64,000 nucleotides of DNA from an uncultured Solirubrobacterales bacterium. GTDB lineage: Bacteria > Actinomycetota > Thermoleophilia > Solirubrobacterales > 70-9. Below are positions 2,840 through 55,508 of this stretch, one piece after another (within the stretch, counting starts at the first letter, position 1; each line of letters begins with the position of its first letter). A program made the position numbers and the translations under genes. The notes below the pieces were generated by a model, which was given only the letters and a program-made list of their open reading frames with translations, ran no database searches and was not told the DNA's origin. Location: contig OY970384.1 of NCBI GenBank assembly GCA_963719435.1, forward strand, positions 2,623,835-2,687,834. Reading direction: 5' to 3'.

Positions 2840-4341
2840 GCGCCGCTCTCCTCCGGAGCCGGTTCCGGCCGGCTGGTGATGCCGGCGGCGATCGTCGCCA
2901 TCTTCTTGCTGCTGTGGGCGCGGGCGTAGAAGAAGTAGACGCAGAGGCCGATCGCGGCCCAGACCGCGAGCCGGATCCAGGTGTCGCCGGGGAGCGTCGC
3001 CATCAGCGCCAGCGAGGAGACGATCGCGGTGCCGGCGACCAGCGGCAGCGCCGGCACCCGGAAGGGCCGCGGCAGGTCGGGATAGCGGCGGCGCAGGGTG
3101 AGGACGCCGGCGGAGACGATGATGAAGGCGAGCAGGGTCCCGATCGAGATCAGTTCGCCGAGCACCGAGAGCGGCACCAGGCCGGCGACGATGCCGCCGA
3201 CGATCCCGCAGAGGACGATCGAGAACTGGGGCGTCTTGGTGCGGCCGCTGACCTTGCCGAAGGCCGGCGGCAGCATCCCGTCCTCCGACATCCGCATGAA
3301 GATCCGGGTCTGGCCGTAGAGGGTGACCAGCACGGTCGAGGCGAGGCCGACGACGGCGGCGAAGTCGGTCAGCTTCAGCAGCCAGTCGAGATCGCGGCCG
3401 CCGGCCTGGAGCGCGACCGCGATCGGATCGGCGACGCCGAGGTCGCGGTAGTCGACCATGCCGGTGAGGACGAAGCCGACGGCGATGTAGACGACGGTGG
3501 CGATGATCACCGTGCCGAGCAGCCCGATCGGGACGGTGCGGCGAGGGTTGCGGGCCTCGGCCGCGGCGGTGGAGACGGCGTCGAAGCCGATGTAGGCGAA
3601 GAAGACGATGCCGGCGCCACGGAAGACGCCGCTCCAGCCGAAGTCGCCGAACCCCCCCTCCGCCGCCGGCAGGAACGGCTTCAGGTTGGAGGAGGAGACG
3701 TAGAAGATGCCGACCACGACGACCAGCAGCAGGATCGAGAGCTTCAGCAGGACCATCGAGTTGTTGGCGACCGCCGACTCGCGGGTGCCGAGCCAGAGCG
3801 CCCCCGAGGTGAGGAACATGATCGCCATTGCCGGCAGGTTGATGATCCCGGGGTCGTCGCCGAACGGGGCGGTGACGAGGGCGTGCGGGAGGTGGACCCC
3901 GAACGAGTCGAGCAGGCTGACGAAGTAGCCCGACCAGCCGACCGCCACGGTCGAGGCGGCGAACAGGTACTCGAGCAGCAGGTCCCAGCCGATGAACCAG
4001 CCGACGAAGGAGCCGAAGGCGGCGAAGGCATAGGAGTAGGTGCTGCCGGCGGCCGGGATCATCGAGGCCAGCTCCGCGTAACAGAGGGCGGTCAGCCCGG
4101 CGACTATGCCGGCGAGGACGAAGGAGATCAGCACCGCCGGCCCCGCGTAGTGGGCGGCGGCGTCGCCGGTGACGACGAAGATCCCGGCGCCGACGACGCT
4201 GGCGACGCCGAGCAGGGTGAGGCTGAAGGCGCCGAGGGCGGTGGAGTTGAGCCGGGTGCGGTCGTGCTCGGCCGTCGCCAGGATCGCGTCGAGGTTGCCG
4301 CGATCCGGCCCGGGGTCGCTCATCGGCCGTGATCCTGCCAC
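2836..4341 (-). CDS. APC-superfamily (cationic) amino acid permease
   Basis: 501-aa ORF with 12-13 hydrophobic segments and the APC signature region GAFSLTLLGVASVVGAGIFVVTG...GPAVLISFVLAG. Start is either GTG 4341 or ATG 4323. Confidence 0.85.
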   Translation of the reverse strand: MAGSRPMSDPGPDRGNLDAILATAEHDRTRLNSTALGAFSLTLLGVASVVGAGIFVVTGDAAAHYAGPAVLISFVLAGIVAGLTALCYAELASMIPAAGSTYSYAFAAFGSFVGWFIGWDLLLEYLFAASTVAVGWSGYFVSLLDSFGVHLPHALVTAPFGDDPGIINLPAMAIMFLTSGALWLGTRESAVANNSMVLLKLSILLLVVVVGIFYVSSSNLKPFLPAAEGGFGDFGWSGVFRGAGIVFFAYIGFDAVSTAAAEARNPRRTVPIGLLGTVIIATVVYIAVGFVLTGMVDYRDLGVADPIAVALQAGGRDLDWLLKLTDFAAVVGLASTVLVTLYGQTRIFMRMSEDGMLPPAFGKVSGRTKTPQFSIVLCGIVGGIVAGLVPLSVLGELISIGTLLAFIIVSAGVLTLRRRYPDLPRPFRVPALPLVAGTAIVSSLALMATLPGDTWIRLAVWAAIGLCVYFFYARAHSSKKMATIAAGITSRPEPAPEESGA

Positions 4342-4370: not shown

Positions 4371-5054
4371 ATGACCGCCGAGCGCCCGAGTTCCCAGCTG
4401 CCGACCACGATCGCCGGCCTCGCCGCGGCGCTGCTCTGCAACTTCTGGGTGCTGGAAGGGCTGCTGGCCAAGCGCAACGACCTCTCGGGGGCCTGGATCA
4501 GCGACCTGGCGGCGCGCTCGCAGGCCTACGGCTGGCGCTTCCAGCTGCTCGAAGTCGCCGCCGGGCTGGCGATCGCCGGCTTCGCGGCGCTGTTGCTGCG
4601 GGGGGCGGGAGGCCGGCCCGCGGGCGCGGGCGACACGCAGCTGCTGCGCCGCGGCCTCCTCGCCCTGCTCGCCGCCGGGGCCCTCGCCGCGCTCGGAGGC
4701 GTTGCCCCGCTCAACTGCGCCGAAGCCCTGGAACGGACCTGCGACCTCAGCTACGACCCCTTCGACCTGCTCCACACCGTCGCCAACCTGCTCGAAGTCG
4801 TCGCCCTGGCGGCGGCCTTCGCCCTGGTCGGGATCGGCCTGGCGCGCGCCCAGCCGAGGCTGAGCCGGACGACGCTGACGATCGGCGCCCTCTGGCTGCT
4901 GCTGATGGCGCTGGCCGGGATCGGCTACCTGGTCGGCGACGTCGGCGCGGCCAAGGGCCTGTTCCAGCGCGGCGGCCAGCTCCTGCTCGGCGCCTGGCTG
5001 GCGCTGCTCGGGCTGAGCACTGCGCGCCTGGCGGGACCGGACGAGGGCCATTGA
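4371..5054 (+). CDS. DUF998-like integral membrane protein
   Basis: ORF 4329..5054; ATG at 4371 (MTAERP...) is the preferred start. Multi-pass hydrophobic protein, divergent from the permease gene. Confidence 0.55.
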   Translation: MTAERPSSQLPTTIAGLAAALLCNFWVLEGLLAKRNDLSGAWISDLAARSQAYGWRFQLLEVAAGLAIAGFAALLLRGAGGRPAGAGDTQLLRRGLLALLAAGALAALGGVAPLNCAEALERTCDLSYDPFDLLHTVANLLEVVALAAAFALVGIGLARAQPRLSRTTLTIGALWLLLMALAGIGYLVGDVGAAKGLFQRGGQLLLGAWLALLGLSTARLAGPDEGH

Positions 5055-35611: not shown

Positions 35612-36769
35612 ATGACCGCGATGGCACTTCCGACCAAGGACCAGATCACCGAGCAGCTGCGCGCGGTCATCGACCCCGAGCTGCGCAAGAACATCGTCGA
35701 GCTCGGCATGGTGCGCTCGATCGACGTCCAGGAGAGCGGCCGGGTCGAGGTGATCGTCTCGCTGACCACCGCCGGCTGCCCGATCCGCTCCCACTTCGAA
35801 CAGGCGGTCGCCGGGCAGGTCTCCGCGCTGGAGGGCGTGACCTCCGTCGGCGTCGGCTTCGACGTCCTCTCCGACGACGAGAAAGGCGCGCTGCAGCAGA
35901 GCCTGGGCCGCGGCAAGCTGCCGCAGGGGGCGCTGGCCAAGGTCAAGAACGTGATCTGCATCTCCTCCGGCAAGGGCGGTGTCGGCAAGTCGACGATGAC
36001 CGCCAACCTGGCGGCGGCGCTGACCGCCGAAGGGCACGCCGCCGGCGCCCTCGACGCCGACGTCTACGGCTACTCGATCCCGCGCATGCTCGGGGTCAAC
36101 CACAAGCCGGAGGTGAACGGCGAGCGCAAGATCCTGCCGCTGGACAGCCCCAGCGGGGTCAAGGTGATGTCGATCGGCTTCTTCGTCGAGGACAACGCGG
36201 CGGTCGTCTGGCGCGGCCCGATGCTGCACAAGGCGATCCAGCAGTTCCTCGAGGACGTCGCCTGGGACGAGCTGGAGTACCTCCTCCTCGACCTGCCGCC
36301 CGGCACCGGCGACGTCTCGATGACGCTCGCCCAGCTATTGCCGCAGGCCAAGTTCGTCGTCGTCACCACGCCGCAGCCGGCGGCCCAGTCGGTGGCCCGG
36401 CGCGGGGCCGAGATGGCGGCCAAATTCGACCTCGAGATCCTCGGCGTGATCGAGAACATGTCCGGCTTCACCACCCCCGACGGCGAGCGCTTCACGATCT
36501 TCGGCGAGGGCGGCGGCCAGCTGCTGGCCGACGAGCTCGACGTGCCGCTGCTGGGCAAGGTGCCGCTCTCCGAGCCGCTGCGCGAGCACGCCGACTCCGG
36601 CTCACCGCTGGTCCTCGCCGAGCCCGATGCCCCCGCCTCCCAGGCGATCCGCCAGGCCGCCCGCGGCATCATCGCGGCGACCCCGCAGGAGCTGCCGGTG
36701 CTGCAGGCGACGCCGAGCCCGGCCGAAGCGCCGCCGGTCAGCGGGACGCCGCTTCCCGTCGTTCAGTAA
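35612..36769 (+). CDS. apbC: Mrp/ApbC/NBP35-family Fe-S cluster carrier ATPase
   Basis: ATG 35612. N-terminal MIP18/DUF59-like domain ([16 protein letters not shown]), deviant Walker [13 protein letters not shown] and the CxxC-type region. Confidence 0.9.
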
Positions 36770-36808
36770 GCGCTGCGCCGTCGGTCGTTCGAGACGAGGG
36801 CCAGTGAG

Positions 36809-36954
36809 GGAGGGGTCTGGTCGTCCTCTGGGCGAATTTAGTCGCGCGCCCTTCGGGCGCAGCTCCGGATGTTGGAGCGCGCCTATGGCGCGCAAATAAC
36901 AGATTGCATATCGCCGCTGCGCGACATTCGCCCAGAGGACGACCAGACCCCTCC
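36809..36954 (+). repeat. element E1: perfect 29-bp outer stem enclosing an 88-nt conserved, internally structured core (candidate structured RNA or palindromic mobile element)
   Basis: Arms are 36809-36837 GGAGGGGTCTGGTCGTCCTCTGGGCGAAT and 36926-36954 (exact reverse complement). The core holds the GTCGCGC/GCGCGAC stem and the hairpins GCGCCC-TTC-GGGCGC and GCGCGCC-TAT-GGCGCGC. Confidence 0.85.
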
Positions 36955-37070
36955 AACGACACGCACTGTCAGGACGGCCAAGGATGCGGGACCTCTTCAG
37001 CGAAGAAGCCACGCCCCGCACCTTCTAAGTGGGGACCGAGGGTTCTTACGTCTGCCGGAGTTCGCTCCGT

Positions 37071-37222
37071 GGGACGGGTGTCGGTACTCCCCCGCGGGAA
37101 TGTCGCGAAGCGGCGGAAATGCAATTCGATTCCTGCCCGCCATAGGCGGGCACAACCATCCGGAGCCGCCCGCGACAGCGGGCGCGACTCAATTCACGCG
37201 GGGGAGTACCGACACCCGTCCC
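37071..37222 (-). repeat. element E2: perfect 26-bp outer stem enclosing a 100-nt core homologous to E1 in inverted orientation
   Basis: Arms are 37071-37096 GGGACGGGTGTCGGTACTCCCCCGCG and 37197-37222 (exact reverse complement). The reverse-complemented core aligns with the E1 core: GAATTGAGTCGCGC...GCTCCGGATG...GCCCGCCTATGGCGGGC...ATTGCAT...GCCGCTTCGCGACATTC. Confidence 0.85.
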
Positions 37223-37240
37223 CCGCAACCCTCCCGGCAC

Positions 37241-37270
37241 AAAAAAAGGGCCGCCCGGAGGCGACCCTTT
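37241..37270 (-). terminator. rho-independent terminator of fdxA
   Basis: Minus strand reads AAAGGGTCGCC-TCCG-GGCGGCCCTTT followed by TTTTGTG, 25 nt after the fdxA stop. Confidence 0.7.
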
Positions 37271-37294: not shown

Positions 37295-37564
37295 CTAAGC
37301 GGCTTTGCTCTTGTAGTAGTTCGCGTTGATCTCCGCGTATTTGGCCCACTCGGCCGGGAGCTGGTCCTCGGCGAAGCAGGCGTCGACCGGGCAGGCCTCG
37401 ACGCAGGCGTCGCAGTCGATGCACTCGTCCGGGTCGATGTAGAGCATCTCCACCGAGTCGTAGTCGGGCTCGTCCGGCGTCGGGTGGATGCAGTCGACAG
37501 GGCATACCTCGACGCACGAGTTGTCCTTTTGGCCGATGCATGGCTCGGCGATGACGTAGGTCAT
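37295..37564 (-). CDS. fdxA: 7Fe (3Fe-4S/4Fe-4S) ferredoxin
   Basis: 89 aa from ATG 37564, preceded by AGGAGAAG. Cysteine pattern CIGQKDNSCVEVCPVDC...CIDCDACVEACP. It is the tail of a 1365-aa shadow ORF. Confidence 0.9.
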   Translation of the reverse strand: MTYVIAEPCIGQKDNSCVEVCPVDCIHPTPDEPDYDSVEMLYIDPDECIDCDACVEACPVDACFAEDQLPAEWAKYAEINANYYKSKAA

Positions 37565-42433: not shown

Positions 42434-42467
42434 AAAAAGAGGGCCCCGGCGCTTGCCGGGGCCCTCT
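42434..42467 (-). terminator. rho-independent terminator of groEL
   Basis: Minus strand reads AGAGGGCCCCGGC-AAGC-GCCGGGGCCCTCT followed by TTTTTG, 25 nt after the groEL stop. Confidence 0.75.
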
Positions 42468-42491
42468 GGAACAGCAGTCGCGGAAGGCGAC

Positions 42492-52500: not shown

Positions 52501-54167
52501 GCGAAGCGGTCGGAGGGATAGCGGCCGTCGAGCATGTCGAGCACGTTCTCCAGCTGCTCACGCGAGAGCTCGCGGAAGGACTCGGTGGCGGTGACCAGGC
52601 GCTCGACCTCGTCGACCTCCCACTCGTCCAGGGCGGCCATCGAGACCAGGTGCTGGGCGAGCACGTCGAGTGGGTTCTGCGGGATCACCGTCTCCTCGAT
52701 CTCGCCTTCGCGCATGCGCCGCGCGACCACCGCGCACTCGAGCAGGTCGCCGCGGTATTTGGGGAAGATCCGCCCTTTCGAGGTCTCGCCCAGCCCGTGC
52801 CCAGCGCGCCCGATCCTCTGCAGGCCGCGGGTCACCGACTTCGGCGACTCGACCTGGATCACCAGGTCGACCGCGCCCATGTCGATGCCGAGCTCCAGCG
52901 ACGACGTCGCCACCAGGCAGGGCAGCTGGCCGGACTTGAGCATCTCCTCGACCAGGGTCCGCTCCTCGTGGGATAGGGAGCCGTGGTGGGCACGGGCGAT
53001 CTCCTCGTAGGCATCCTGAGGAGATCCGGGGGAGGATCCTGCGGGCGGGGACGGGGTCTCCGTTCTCGGACCCTCCCCCGAATCTCCCGAGCTCGCGGCG
53101 TGACCGCCGTGCTCGGTCGCGGGCAGCTCCCCTTCGAGTTCTCCGTTAGCAAGCTCGTTCAGGCGCTTTGCCAAGCGCTCGGAGGCCCTTCTGTTGTTGA
53201 CGAAGATGATCGTCGAGGTGTGCTCCTGGACCAGCTCCAGCAGCTTCGGGTAGATCGCCGGCCAGATCGAGCGGATGTGGGCGCTGGGCTCGACTTCCGT
53301 CGGGGGAGGGCCGTCTTCGCTGGGATAGGCGGGCGCCCCCGGGTCCGACATGTCCTCCACCGGCACCACGATCTCCAGGTCCAAATCCTTGGTCCGCCCC
53401 GCGTCGACAATCCGGCATTTGCGCTTCGGGCCCACCAGGAACTGCGCGATCCGCTCCAACGGCCGCTGCGTCGCTGACAGCCCGATCCGCTGGATCCCTG
53501 ACCCAGGCCCCCGTGGGGAGGAGTCAGGGGAGGACTCTGACGAGCCTCCCCGCTGTTGCTCGGCAGAGTCCTCCCCTGAGGCTTCCCCGCCGGCACCTTG
53601 AACAAGGTCATCCAACCGCTCCAGCGTCAACGCCAGGTGCGCCCCCCGCTTGGTCTGGGCAACGGCATGAATCTCGTCGACGATCACCGCTTCGGTCGTG
53701 GCGAGGATCTCGCGCACGCCGGAGGAGAGCATCAGGTAGAGCGACTCGGGGGTGGTGATGAGGATGTCCGGCGGCGTTTTCTGCATCTTGCGCCGCTCCG
53801 ACTGGGGCGTGTCGCCGGTCCGCAGGCCGACCGAGATCTCCGCCCCGATCCCGCGCAGCGGCGCCCGCAGGTTGCGCTCGATGTCGTAGGAGAGCGCCTT
53901 CAGCGGCGAGACGTAGACCAGGCGCACGCCCTGCCCCAGCTCCTCGGAGCGGGCCAGCTTGTCGATCCCCCAGAGGAAGCTGGCCAGGGTCTTCCCGGAC
54001 CCCGTCGGCGCGCAGATCAGCGCGTTGTCGCCCCCCGAGATCGCCTCCCAGCCCCCCGCCTGCGCCGGCGTCGGCCCCTCGAACGAGGCCTCGAACCACC
54101 TACGCACCGGCGCACTGAACGGCGCCAACGGATCAGGTTTCGCACTCTTCTTCGCCTTGGTCACCAA
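49542..54167 (-). CDS. lhr: Lhr-family ATP-dependent DExH-box helicase (large helicase-related protein)
   Basis: 1541 aa. Motif I APTGSGKT, motif II VDEIH, SAT, QRIGRAGH, and the long Lhr-type C-terminal extension. Confidence 0.9.
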   Translation of the reverse strand: MVTKAKKSAKPDPLAPFSAPVRRWFEASFEGPTPAQAGGWEAISGGDNALICAPTGSGKTLASFLWGIDKLARSEELGQGVRLVYVSPLKALSYDIERNLRAPLRGIGAEISVGLRTGDTPQSERRKMQKTPPDILITTPESLYLMLSSGVREILATTEAVIVDEIHAVAQTKRGAHLALTLERLDDLVQGAGGEASGEDSAEQQRGGSSESSPDSSPRGPGSGIQRIGLSATQRPLERIAQFLVGPKRKCRIVDAGRTKDLDLEIVVPVEDMSDPGAPAYPSEDGPPPTEVEPSAHIRSIWPAIYPKLLELVQEHTSTIIFVNNRRASERLAKRLNELANGELEGELPATEHGGHAASSGDSGEGPRTETPSPPAGSSPGSPQDAYEEIARAHHGSLSHEERTLVEEMLKSGQLPCLVATSSLELGIDMGAVDLVIQVESPKSVTRGLQRIGRAGHGLGETSKGRIFPKYRGDLLECAVVARRMREGEIEETVIPQNPLDVLAQHLVSMAALDEWEVDEVERLVTATESFRELSREQLENVLDMLDGRYPSDRFAELRPRIVWDRTQGTIHGRKGARSLVVTNAGTIPDRGLYSVNLPDGRRVGELDEEMVYEARPGQTFLLGATTWRIEEITRDRVIVTPAPGAPGAVPFWKGDGIGRPAELGRAIGAFSREAVSREPSELAAEYDLDERAANNLVTYLREQQQATRVVPSDETIVVERFRDEIGDWRLCILSPYGGRVHSAWGLALAAKIRAEHDLEADAIWSDDGIVIHLPDADEAPPSDMVLIDPEEIEDLIVSELSGSALFGARFRENAARSLLIPRAYPGKRTPLWQQRLKSQSLLEVARDFPRFPVILETYRECLQDVLDLPGLADLLGKLHARQISLVEVETPTASPFASSLLFDYVATYMYEGDTPNAERRAAALALDRDLLRELLGQEELRELIDPEALVEVEEQLQHRTEAGGAGDRDALQQLLRNLGDMTAAECDERVTEGYSAASMLEKLVAERRVAKVRVAGEERYIAAEDAGLYRDALGVPPPAGLPETFLEDHPDAMRALVRRYARTHGPFPTAQLAERYGVDPLPPLRELESEGALVRGELLPQGTEREWCDSEVLRRVRRASLARLRKEVEAADRSELARFLPSWQNVDAFRPAGAGPDRLREALVPLQGVALTPKVWEADVLPRRLGTYSPAWLDELCTSGELVWVGAGARGRSDGRVALYFREDVRLAGPPPANAKLEAPSGEVHAAIRERLAAGPSFWLDLLADLDHPAEELHNALWDLAWSGGVTNDAFSPLRAPRLRAVSSADRGGRRFARRRANAGAAVQGRWSLTEPLFANAPGPGARLRAQAELMLERYGIVTRETVLAEGIPGGFATLYAELGNLELLGTARRGYFVEGLGGAQFALPGAVERLRSLPEADGSYTLLAATDPANPYGASLPWPKLEGGRRPGRTPGAHLLLRDGEPVVFLERGGRGILRLQPLEGAELEAAMRALAEAVSAGQLPKLAVEKLDGEAVIGCGHEEALIGAGFSRGPRKLSVSSR

Positions 54168-54192: not shown

Positions 54193-54237
54193 TGCGGCAG
54201 TCCTTTGTGGACCTATGCGACACAAAGGACTGCCGCA
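54193..54237. repeat. 17-bp palindrome TGCGGCAGTCCTTTGTG-N11-CACAAAGGACTGCCGCA
   Basis: Read directly from the sequence, 26-70 nt upstream of the lhr start. Loop is GACCTATGCGA. Shares its core with the palindrome at 42345..42379. Confidence 0.85.
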
Positions 54238-54246
54238 CTCGGACGA

Positions 54247-54358
54247 GCCCTGTCCCGGTAGGGGTGAAGCGTCTTGTACTTTTTCGCGGCTGTGCCCCGG
54301 GGCGACAGCCGGCGGCGATCCCCGAAAAAGTTAAGCGAAACCCCTACCGGGACAGGGC
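54247..54358. repeat. 112-nt nested palindrome (19-bp perfect outer stem)
   Basis: Outer stem GCCCTGTCCCGGTAGGGGT / ACCCCTACCGGGACAGGGC. Inner stems are CTTTTTCG/CGAAAAAG, CGGCTGT/ACAGCCG and GCCCC/GGGGC. Ends 1 nt from the stop codon of gene 54360..55508. Confidence 0.85.
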
Positions 54359-54359
54359 C

Positions 54360-55508
54360 CTACGGCGTCCCGCCAGCGAACTTCACGTACGCGTACCAAG
54401 CCTTCTTCGGCACGAACCCGGGGCCGAAGAGGCCGGAGCCGTTGCAGAAGTTGCAGATCCCCTCCTGGTCGTCGACCGAGAACCAGTAGATCCGCTGCAG
54501 CTTCCATTTCAGCTGGTTGGCGACCAGCAGCTTGAAGGCGCCTTTGAGCTGGGTGGCCTGGCCGGCCGGGCCCTTGGCGAAGATGTTGCGCAGCGGGTCC
54601 GGCGGCTGCGAGCTCCAGCCGAGCTCGGTGATCCAGAGGCCCTTGGCGGCGTCTTTGTTCTCGGCCAGGACGGCGCGGAATTCTTCGATCTCCGGCCTCA
54701 GGTCCTGGTACTTGCCGGTATAGGGATGCAGGGCGACGCCCTCGAACTTCGACTTGATCCCCGGCGTCTTTTCGTACATCAGGTCGAGGAAGTCGGCGGC
54801 GCAGTAGTTCTGCTTCGGCAGCTGCTTCGAGCGGCAGCCCTTCGGCAGCGCGAACATCCCGCCGAGGATGACCTGGGAGCCCGGATCGGCGGCTTTCAGC
54901 GCCGTGTGGGAGAGCTTGACCAGCTTCCCGTATTCGATCGGGTTCGGCTTGGCGGCGAAGTACTTGAAGTTCTCCTCGTTCCAGATCTGCCAGGCGCGGA
55001 TCGGGCGCTTGGGCACGATCGGGTTCTCGGCCCAGAAGCTGCCGTTGGGGCCGTAGCGGGCGACCGCGCCTTTGAGCAGGCTCGACCAGGCGCTGGCGGC
55101 GGGGCCGGTGATCGGCAGGCGGCCGGGCGCTTTCGCGGTCTGGCCGGTGCCGGGGACGAAGATCGGTGGCACCGCCCAGGCCGGGGCGCCGCTGACGAAC
55201 GGCAGCACCTCGACGCCGGCGTTGGCGGCGCGGCGGACGATGCCGTCGACGCCGCTCCAGTTGAGCGGGCCGCCGGCGTCGGGCTGGATCGCGCCCCACT
55301 CGATCGGGATGCGGATGCTGTCGACGCCGCCGCCCTTGAGCAGCTGGAACTGTTCGTCGCTGGGCGTTTCCTGCGGCACCACGCCCCAGAATTTGGCCGG
55401 CACCGCCTGCGCGGAGGCGGCGAAGGCGGACATGCCGAGCAGCGCCATGGCCAGAATCGCCGTCCAGGCGCGTGCTCCTCTGCTGATTTGCATCGTCGCT
55501 TTGGACAT
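54360..55508 (-). CDS. secreted TIM-barrel glycoside hydrolase (GH5/GH39-like)
   Basis: 382 aa. Signal peptide, then WQIWNEEN (acid/base Glu) and WITELGW (nucleophile Glu) motifs. Confidence 0.6.
   Translation of the reverse strand: MSKATMQISRGARAWTAILAMALLGMSAFAASAQAVPAKFWGVVPQETPSDEQFQLLKGGGVDSIRIPIEWGAIQPDAGGPLNWSGVDGIVRRAANAGVEVLPFVSGAPAWAVPPIFVPGTGQTAKAPGRLPITGPAASAWSSLLKGAVARYGPNGSFWAENPIVPKRPIRAWQIWNEENFKYFAAKPNPIEYGKLVKLSHTALKAADPGSQVILGGMFALPKGCRSKQLPKQNYCAADFLDLMYEKTPGIKSKFEGVALHPYTGKYQDLRPEIEEFRAVLAENKDAAKGLWITELGWSSQPPDPLRNIFAKGPAGQATQLKGAFKLLVANQLKWKLQRIYWFSVDDQEGICNFCNGSGLFGPGFVPKKAWYAYVKFAGGTP

Follow-up and report, generated by a model that had tools for sequence, protein, structure and literature searches.

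Paired, convergent branched hairpins make up a conserved extragenic repeat in uncultured Solirubrobacterales

Detailed knowledge of extragenic palindromic repeats is limited to proteobacteria and a few Firmicutes, and what they do is still a matter of debate. The best-known examples, the repetitive extragenic palindromic sequences and bacterial interspersed mosaic elements (REP/BIME, including REPIN) of Escherichia coli and Pseudomonas, lie after genes, in operons and between convergent genes, occur as inverted pairs with a spacer and show compensated changes in their stems. As transcribed hairpins of the 3' untranslated region (3' UTR) they stabilise the upstream mRNA and attenuate read-through, and such a dual role of terminator and stabiliser has been described for REPs between convergent genes too (bioRxiv 10.64898/2026.03.23.713779). 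REPs are ~35 nt long, carry a GTAG-type tetranucleotide at the 5' side, number hundreds per genome and are tied to the RAYT transposases. The ERIC/IRU repeats of enterobacteria are ~127-bp imperfect palindromes of low copy number, found in transcribed intergenic regions and highly conserved across species; we know of no mobilising enzyme for them and of no settled function. Here we analyse a 64,000-nt stretch of DNA (the window) of an uncultured Solirubrobacterales bacterium (GenBank assembly GCA_963719435.1, contig OY970384.1, positions 2,623,835 to 2,687,834), in which two long hairpin modules, E1 and E2, lie between an mrp/apbC-like gene and fdxA, which converge on them. Judging from sequence comparisons, E1, the spacer and E2 together represent a single copy of a conserved non-coding repeat that had not been described before and is specific to an uncultured Solirubrobacterales clade.

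The resemblance of this unit to REP/BIME is clear in its extragenic position after genes and between convergent ones, in its inverted arrangement and in the compensated changes of its stems, and a similar effect on transcripts is proposed below. Unlike REPs, however, its modules are ~150–180 nt long, enclose a branched conserved core and have no GTAG-like motif, only a few units were detected per genome, the two modules of a pair belong to different subtypes, and no RAYT was seen, with no transposase family recurring in the flanking genes of 91 loci. ERIC repeats differ in being single palindromes and not obligate convergent pairs, and have no perfect 30-bp stem around a branched core; they are likened to the unit by features only, and a sequence relationship is not expected.

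With a covariance model built from 96 copies, the fetched DNA yields at least 148 copies (E<=1e-19), which span roughly 50 species of Solirubrobacterales/Thermoleophilia known from metagenome-assembled genomes (MAGs), plus soil metagenomes. The scan of one genome per species, with the conserved junctions GAATTnAGTCGCG...CGCGACATTC as the pattern, gave 91 stretches, nearly all of them from uncultured Solirubrobacterales or Thermoleophilia MAGs, and JGI metagenomes gave 62 further stretches. Viral contigs scanned with the family pattern gave no match, nor did the metagenome collection when searched with the exact E1 arm. One good copy (L063) sits on a 5-kb contig binned as Chloroflexota (JBLMYD010000035.1), which suggests mis-binning or transfer, while the pattern match in Sphingomonas sp. 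Y57 (L054) is stemless and AT-rich and is a chance match. Two contigs of MAG MFD05537.bin.2.47 (L034 and L058) carry an identical unit with identical flanks, probably as an assembly duplicate or a recent segmental duplication.

The real unit of the family is the pair and not the single element, a point overlooked in the original prediction, which had been made from the letters of the window. Adjacent copies are all arranged as (+) then (-), i.e. convergently (92 of 92, 80–320 nt apart), and the covariance model finds a partner beside nearly every copy. The unit is ~430 bp long and consists of two homologous convergent hairpin modules around a variable spacer. Each module (146–190 nt) has a perfectly paired stem of ~28–30 bp and a second stem that is short and invariant; its branched core of ~96 nt carries two triloop hairpins. 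In the alpha module, to which E1 belongs, the conserved stem GGAGGGGTCTGGTCRYCCTCYGGG is followed by AACGACACGC-n5-CGGGACGGCC-gAGG-TTCGGAAGCTC. The partner module is more variable; its beta type, represented by E2, has the stem GAGGGcTGTCGGTACCCCTCCGCG followed by CAACGnAgCGAGCTCCGG. Spacers often hold repeated GGAAGCT motifs and are otherwise unalignable. In some partners the core has decayed and the long stem is retained. The partner positions of L023 (1648–1794), L096 and L098 are strongly diverged, with a GGGAGGG...CCCTCC stem kept and a core that starts with CCTCCGAACGTTTTGCG, which shows that a stem can outlast the decay of its core.

RNAalifold and direct pair counts agree on four helices: an outer stem P1 of 24+4 bp, an invariant 6-bp P2, hairpin A and hairpin C. 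Pairing is kept in 96.3% of cells, against 76.3% in shuffles and 38–49% with the partners slid, and 1298 cells are changed on both sides, against 354 in shuffles, these counts being tallies of sequences and not of evolutionary events. Both-sided change is seen in 38 of the 47 pairs, and the covariation score is 0.496 (0.129 in shuffles). Identity among copies is 53% in the stem arms and 81% in the core, where the junctions and loops GAATT-n-A, GCT, CCTATGG, GATTGCAT and CGCCGCT are conserved and the length is nearly constant (~94–104 nt). In the window, the folding energies are -108 kcal/mol for E1 (z = -14) and -112 kcal/mol for E2 (z = -10), well outside what chance would give; none of 200 shuffles folds as well, and both strands of either module fold equally well.

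Most of what had originally been described for E1 and E2 agrees with these data. Both outer stems are perfect over the predicted lengths (Table 1), the one of E2 lying inside longer, nearly complementary arms. Reverse-complementing E2 brings out the homology of the cores (60 nt at 75%; 83% mean column identity in the pairwise alignment; both cores ~96 nt). Hairpin A keeps its pairing with a different sequence (GCGCCC-TTC-GGGCGC versus CGCCCGC-TGTC-GCGGGCG), hairpin C covaries (GCGCGCC-TAT-GGCGCGC versus GCCCGCC-TAT-GGCGGGC), the GTCGCG/CGCGAC stem and the TTA/TGA bulge are present, and each module has the same orientation to the gene that terminates next to it, being in sense downstream of its own neighbour. 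The statement that the outer stems share no sequence was wrong: when aligned they are ~65% identical, with the differences mirrored on the opposite arm, and both fit the family consensus GGGAGGGG-nnCCGGT-nCCCCTCC-GCGG.

What keeps the arms complementary then? The cells comprise 6592 Watson-Crick pairs, 47 G-U pairs, 83 A-C mismatches and 169 transversion mismatches, so that G-U, at 0.7% of ~6900 cells, is even rarer than A-C at 1.2%. Compensated changes are 58% transversion-type (GC<->CG, GC<->TA), similar to the unpaired columns, where 35% of changes are transitions. In the RNA terminator stems of Bacillus cereus, 79% of the switches are AU<->GC, and G-U, the usual intermediate, accounts for 4% of pairs (PMC5381666). 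Since pairing in the family is strictly Watson-Crick and its switches are of the transversion type, a DNA-level or both-strand constraint fits better than an RNA of one strand. Complementarity would thus be kept either by constraint on both strands or by DNA-level copying of one arm from the other. The signature of a structured RNA, which had been read from the two copies, therefore stands as far as covariation is concerned and fails for the pattern expected of a single-stranded RNA, and the accompanying caveat, that the absence of G-U pairs also fits DNA-level palindrome maintenance, turns out to carry most weight. Two observations hint faintly at the strand opposite to the core strand: the excess of A-C mismatches over G-U pairs, and the loops of hairpin A (TTC, TGC, TAC), which on that strand read as GNA triloops. 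At P1 columns 33/213 of alignment A3, an A-C mismatch (GGTCATCC opposite GGACGACC) recurs in the outer stem of at least 10 copies from several loci (e.g. L018, L019, L028, L036, L041, L043, L049 and L080); on the opposite strand it would be a G-U wobble.

In the original prediction the elements were not recognised as any named RNA family, and no match was found: Rfam 15 at gathering score returned only tRNAs for the window and 18 loci (>36 copies), and a permissive scan only VA RNA (25.5 bits, cut-off 62) and Ms1 (18.3 bits, cut-off 162), both stem-driven. A literature search for repeats or RNA motifs of Solirubrobacterales/Thermoleophilia yielded nothing relevant. Homologues exist and there are neither identical terminal repeats nor target-site duplications, so that, together with the lack of an Rfam match, all three grounds on which the original prediction could have been dismissed are gone. 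Hammerhead and twister ribozymes were rejected for want of their core motifs and of an Rfam match, 6S/Ms1 and Y RNA on account of scores that were weak and stem-driven, and a peptide encoded in the core because the ATG is not conserved. A consensus scan of the region found no promoters, and a search by eye for sigma-70 or extracytoplasmic-function (ECF)-like hexamers in the core and the alpha flank was unconvincing.

The units sit at the 3' ends of genes. By a crude gene caller based on GC3, 27 pairs have convergent genes on their two sides, 22 are in tandem contexts and none is between divergent genes, and in 54 of 63 pairs a gene 3' end is at most 60 nt away. The neighbours are housekeeping genes (atpC, atpD, tig, clpP, clpX, rpoD, rnj, ftsY, ribH, and those for ferritin and for ABC and MMPL transporters), and the same loci are occupied in 4–10 different species. 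At such orthologous loci the modules are mostly 82–97% identical, the adjacent coding DNA mostly 82–95% and the spacers 27–77%, and the same-locus comparisons, some of which share reference copies, show 119 compensated versus 53 uncompensated pair differences. The modules are thus under purifying constraint at orthologous loci. The atpC locus has a pair in some species and a single module after atpC in others, and the single modules checked in tandem gene contexts, such as this one, are in sense orientation downstream of a gene. At the tig locus, species differ in whether alpha lies gene-proximal or distal; the polarity of alpha in tandem contexts is 3 versus 2, by a motif definition that catches too few units. 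At tig-clpP and atpC-M20 the next start codon is only ~30–40 nt from the unit, and transcription must therefore run through the unit there.

By analogy, we lean, tentatively, to the possibility that the unit is a REP/BIME/ERIC-like element that is transcribed from either side, provides 3'-end hairpins on both strands and carries in its core a recognition site for a protein. Since it lies directly behind stop codons, it would be transcribed as a 3' UTR or an intercistronic segment from either flank. RNA of either strand would fold into two very stable hairpins, which would impede 3'->5' exonucleases and attenuate read-through, and the transcripts of highly expressed housekeeping genes would thereby be punctuated. 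We propose that the restriction to Watson-Crick pairs follows from the need of one stretch of DNA to fold whichever of its strands is read, and template switching between the arms, at the DNA level, may further help to keep the palindromes perfect. A putative protein, which could be a host factor or an enzyme that once mobilised the element, would recognise the invariant core. An intrinsic (Rho-independent) terminator was rejected, as no T-run follows directly after either stem. With no U-tract and with separate canonical terminators elsewhere, the unit is not the default terminator of this genome; taken with the units at tig-clpP and atpC-M20, this speaks more for a hairpin role between cistrons or in the 3' UTR than for classical intrinsic termination.

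Several observations weigh against such a 3'-end element. Neither E1 nor E2 is followed by a U-tract (3' flank CCAACGACACG) and the terminator scan found none there; fdxA has its own canonical terminator before E2, and a groEL-like gene has another at 42435–42470. The latter (-), a GC hairpin with a T-run after a gene ending ...MGGMM*, matches the covariance model weakly (14.5 bits) and by its stem only; it shows that ordinary terminators are in use in this genome. The ~96-nt core with its invariant loops is not needed for a hairpin barrier and is accounted for only via the putative protein. Pairs occur also in tandem contexts, where one hairpin would suffice. The relatives with an identical FdxA are Solirubrobacterales MAGs, which places the window in this group, and ten of them are without the unit between fdxA and mrp, so it is dispensable there. 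Copy number is low for a REP-like element, with 2–9 copies detected per MAG within the fetched loci, and the exact-match pattern used for fetching favours conserved copies. The crudeness of the gene caller behind the context counts belongs on the same side.

The alternatives are not mutually exclusive with the 3'-end hairpin element that we favour, nor with each other. A dedicated structured RNA, i.e. a cis-acting 3'-UTR regulator, a small RNA derived from a 3' UTR or a ribozyme, with its function in the core and the stem as a scaffold, would explain why junction and loop sequences are so strongly conserved, why the core has a constant length, why every helix covaries, why modules are constrained at orthologous loci and why the single modules checked in tandem contexts are in sense behind a gene. 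We nevertheless consider it rather unlikely, as G-U pairs are hardly tolerated (47 of ~6900 cells, fewer than A-C mismatches), the spectrum of switches is unlike that of RNA stems (PMC5381666), both strands fold equally well, and neither a promoter-like site was found in the region scan nor a relative in Rfam. Moreover, because the modules are always inverted pairs, a single transcript would carry one of them antisense. Strictly Watson-Crick pairing, together with the two-fold symmetry of the unit, its enrichment between convergent genes and the repeated GGAAGCT / GAAGCTTC spacer motifs as candidate operators, would also be expected of a DNA architectural or protein-binding site, in duplex or cruciform form, e.g. 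a site for gyrase or a nucleoid protein by which supercoiling is relieved where transcription units converge, a role that has been proposed for BIMEs. This appears to us improbable: positive supercoiling between convergent genes disfavours cruciforms, and the covarying small hairpins of the core imply intrastrand folding and not duplex recognition alone.

An origin as a mobile element deserves separate discussion. An ordinary active miniature inverted-repeat transposable element (MITE) is excluded, because there are no target-site duplications (the longest common substring of left and right flanks is 3.02 versus 3.16 for mismatched flanks, in 56 units), no near-identical copies (best matches 87% to E1 and 85% to E2; within-genome mean 71%, maximum 93%) and no transposase, Rep or reverse transcriptase that recurs among the neighbours. 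The suggestion of a hairpin-targeting mobile element, made along with the original prediction, fails because the stems are homologous among copies and not derived from the target. An old, now largely immobile non-autonomous element, whose two unlike ends (alpha and partner), both branched hairpins, would be recognised as single-stranded DNA in the manner of parvovirus ITRs or of the REPIN/RAYT and IS200/IS605 systems, and which an enzyme encoded elsewhere would move in trans, is another matter. It would account for a dispersed multi-copy family with a fixed left/right asymmetry, for the absence of the unit from mrp-fdxA in ten relatives, for the change in the position of alpha at the tig locus between species, for strict Watson-Crick pairing and opposite-strand GNA triloops of the kind found in stable DNA hairpins, and for the location of units in "safe" sites between convergent genes. 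In addition, one relative (L003) has a different stem-plus-core palindrome at the same mrp-fdxA site. Yet, apart from the three tests above, the metagenome collection has no match to the exact E1 arm, viral contigs give no matches, the units are retained and constrained at orthologous loci, and the two long spacers hold an unrelated IS630 or two small genes, so we regard such an origin as unlikely.

Long spacers occur in only two units. The 1.39-kb spacer of L051 holds an independent IS630-family insertion sequence (~620–1810; 364-aa DDE_3 transposase, terminal inverted repeats TAGTGGgCCTCCC...AAACG, TA target), and the 1.4-kb spacer of L147 two small genes that by reading are lipoprotein-like and membrane-protein-like; neither fits an autonomous copy. 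In L066 and L101, where the two pairs are 4–7 kb apart, the genes in between are ordinary housekeeping ones such as clpX, clpP and tig. Other candidates were rejected as well. A retron msr-msd would need an adjacent reverse transcriptase, and the neighbours are mrp and fdxA here and housekeeping genes elsewhere. Integron attC sites do not fit, as R boxes and arrays are missing and the orientation is inverted, and in an inverton recombination between the cores would mismatch the stems. Stems taken from the target are incompatible with their homology among copies. A hairpin-ended replicon or element of the inverted-terminal-repeat (ITR) type would have the inverted branched hairpins, and also a cargo that encodes Rep, a terminal protein or a transposase; however, the spacers measure 80–320 nt, and the two long ones carry the independent IS630 or the two small genes.

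Several further systems share part of this architecture. The Correia (NEMIS) elements of Neisseria and other MITE-like repeats are likewise short, non-coding and intergenic, with terminal inverted repeats that fold as long RNA hairpins; in Neisseria these hairpins are processed by RNase III. Unlike the Solirubrobacterales family, where none of these was found, they have conserved terminal inverted repeats, TA duplications and many near-identical copies. The ITRs of adeno-associated virus (AAV) and the telomere palindromes of Streptomyces also combine a long stem with small triloop hairpins in a T- or Y-shape, come as an inverted pair, are strictly Watson-Crick with GNA-type loops on one strand and have conserved boxes at the inner side of the hairpins, a resemblance that is one of structure. 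They are, however, ends of molecules, or belong to replicons that encode Rep or terminal proteins, whereas the present modules are internal to the chromosome, flank ~100–300 nt and are linked to no such protein. Bidirectional intrinsic terminators are GC-rich hairpins between convergent genes as well, with stems constrained on both strands, and an increased conservation of shared terminators has been discussed (PMC5381666). The unit differs from them in the lack of an A- or U-tract flank, in a stem far longer than needed, in the conserved 96-nt core in the loop and in the separate terminator of fdxA.

The features of the locus are collected in Table 1. Only 40 nt separate the stop codon of the mrp/apbC-like gene from the E1 stem, and this interval contains no hairpin-plus-T-run terminator. 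A lookup of the exact mrp protein of the window, with two alternative starts, for close strains found no record. Beyond the perfect stems the helices of E1 and E2 run outward imperfectly, with the conserved boxes AACGACACGC at E1 and, on the minus strand, CCCACGGAGCGAACTCCGGC at E2; the alignment of alpha 3' flanks shows the AACGACACGC and CAGGACGGCCAAGG boxes to be conserved also beside the alpha modules of other genomes. The fdxA terminator is kept in a relative (L005) that is without the unit.

Table 1. Coordinates of the E1/E2 unit and its neighbours in the window
Feature	Position	Strand	Details
mrp/apbC-like gene, left neighbour	35612..36769	+	From translation; relatives carry FeS_assembly_P and ParA domains at the same position
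Possible outer imperfect helix of E1	36802-36806 / 36964-36968		CAGTG with CACTG; whole-region folding
E1, alpha-type hairpin module	36809..36954	+	Covariance model 184.8 bits, E=2e-47; P1 in the alpha cluster
E1 P1	36809-36837 / 36926-36954		29 bp, 100% complementary, 88 nt between arms
E1 TTA bulge	36838-36840
E1 P2	36841-36846 / 36920-36925		GTCGCG / CGCGAC
E1 hairpin A	36847-36859
E1 GCTCCGGATG	36862-36871
E1 hairpin C	36877-36893
E1 GATTGCAT	36902-36909
Alpha 3' flank boxes of E1	36955..36983	+	AACGACACGC 36955-36964; CAGGACGGCCAAGG 36970-36983
Spacer E1-E2	36955..37067		113 nt; poorly conserved between orthologous units elsewhere
Beta 3' flank box	37054..37070	-	Minus strand CCCACGGAGCGAACTCCGGC; family motif ACGnnnCGAGCTCCGG
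E2, beta-type hairpin module	37068..37225	-	Covariance model 177.4 bits, E=2e-45
E2 arms, extended	37068-37101 / 37192-37225		34 nt, 94% complementary, 2 mismatches
E2 P1	37071-37096 / 37197-37222		26 bp, perfect
E2 core	37195 down to 37098	-
fdxA intrinsic terminator	37241..37267	-	GGGTCGCC-TCCG-GGCGGCCC then T7; between fdxA stop and E2
fdxA, right neighbour	37295..37564	-	89-aa ferredoxin; convergent with mrp; stop codon 37295-37297

The region between fdxA (3001–3270) and mrp is hypervariable in the ten relatives (L001–L010), ranging from 68 bp to >1 kb, and its divergence is too great for the borders of the element to be defined. Among the genes inserted there are a PemK toxin pair, one that faintly matches Pfam DUF6036, a cation-efflux protein and several unknowns. 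The palindrome of L003 (3270–3395), which takes the place of E1/E2 there, belongs to a second family with a long perfect stem (CCCTGTCCCGGTAGGGGT / ACCCCTACCGGGACAGGG) and a conserved core (TTCGCTTAAC-T5/6-[variable hairpin]-A5/6-GTACAAGACGCTTC), of which the window has a copy at 54244–54365. This copy is adjoined by a perfect 16-bp hairpin at 54194–54236 (GCGGCAGTCCTTTGTG ... CACAAAGGACTGCCGC) with an 11-nt loop containing CCTATG, and at 53519–53578 the window has a coreless P1-like hairpin (GGGGAGGACTCTG ... CAGAGTCCTCCCC) that forms part of an imperfect inverted repeat of 50 nt. A third family, of small palindromes, is centred on GCCC-TGT-GGGC (e.g. TTAGCCCTGTGGGCGAATAAAGG, TTAGTCGCCCTGTGGGCGACCAAAG; L147 2730–4170 and L052 near 4990–5040); in L147 two of its copies, in direct orientation, border the 1.4-kb two-gene segment between the E(+) and E(-) modules.

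The family combines compensated evolution in situ at orthologous loci, an obligate pair of alpha plus partner and conservation at the level of coding DNA, and so adds a structurally far richer example to the extragenic palindromic repeats, from an abundant uncultured lineage of soil actinobacteria. Its massive covariation without a G-U signature calls for caution in covariation-based RNA discovery, and it offers a clean natural case for separating selection at the RNA level from palindrome maintenance at the DNA level. It is conceivable, although we think it doubtful, that the core within its ruler-like ~30-bp stem is the recognition structure of a new system, either a hairpin-ended, ITR-like single-stranded DNA element maintained by a putative HUH- or recombinase-type enzyme of Solirubrobacterales, or a new class of protein-binding or self-processing 3'-UTR RNA that sets the ends of housekeeping transcripts. 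Should the core prove to be bound by a protein of its own, the family would be a lead to a new mobilising enzyme or 3'-end factor. For the annotation of Solirubrobacterales MAGs, the units may serve as predicted transcript boundaries.

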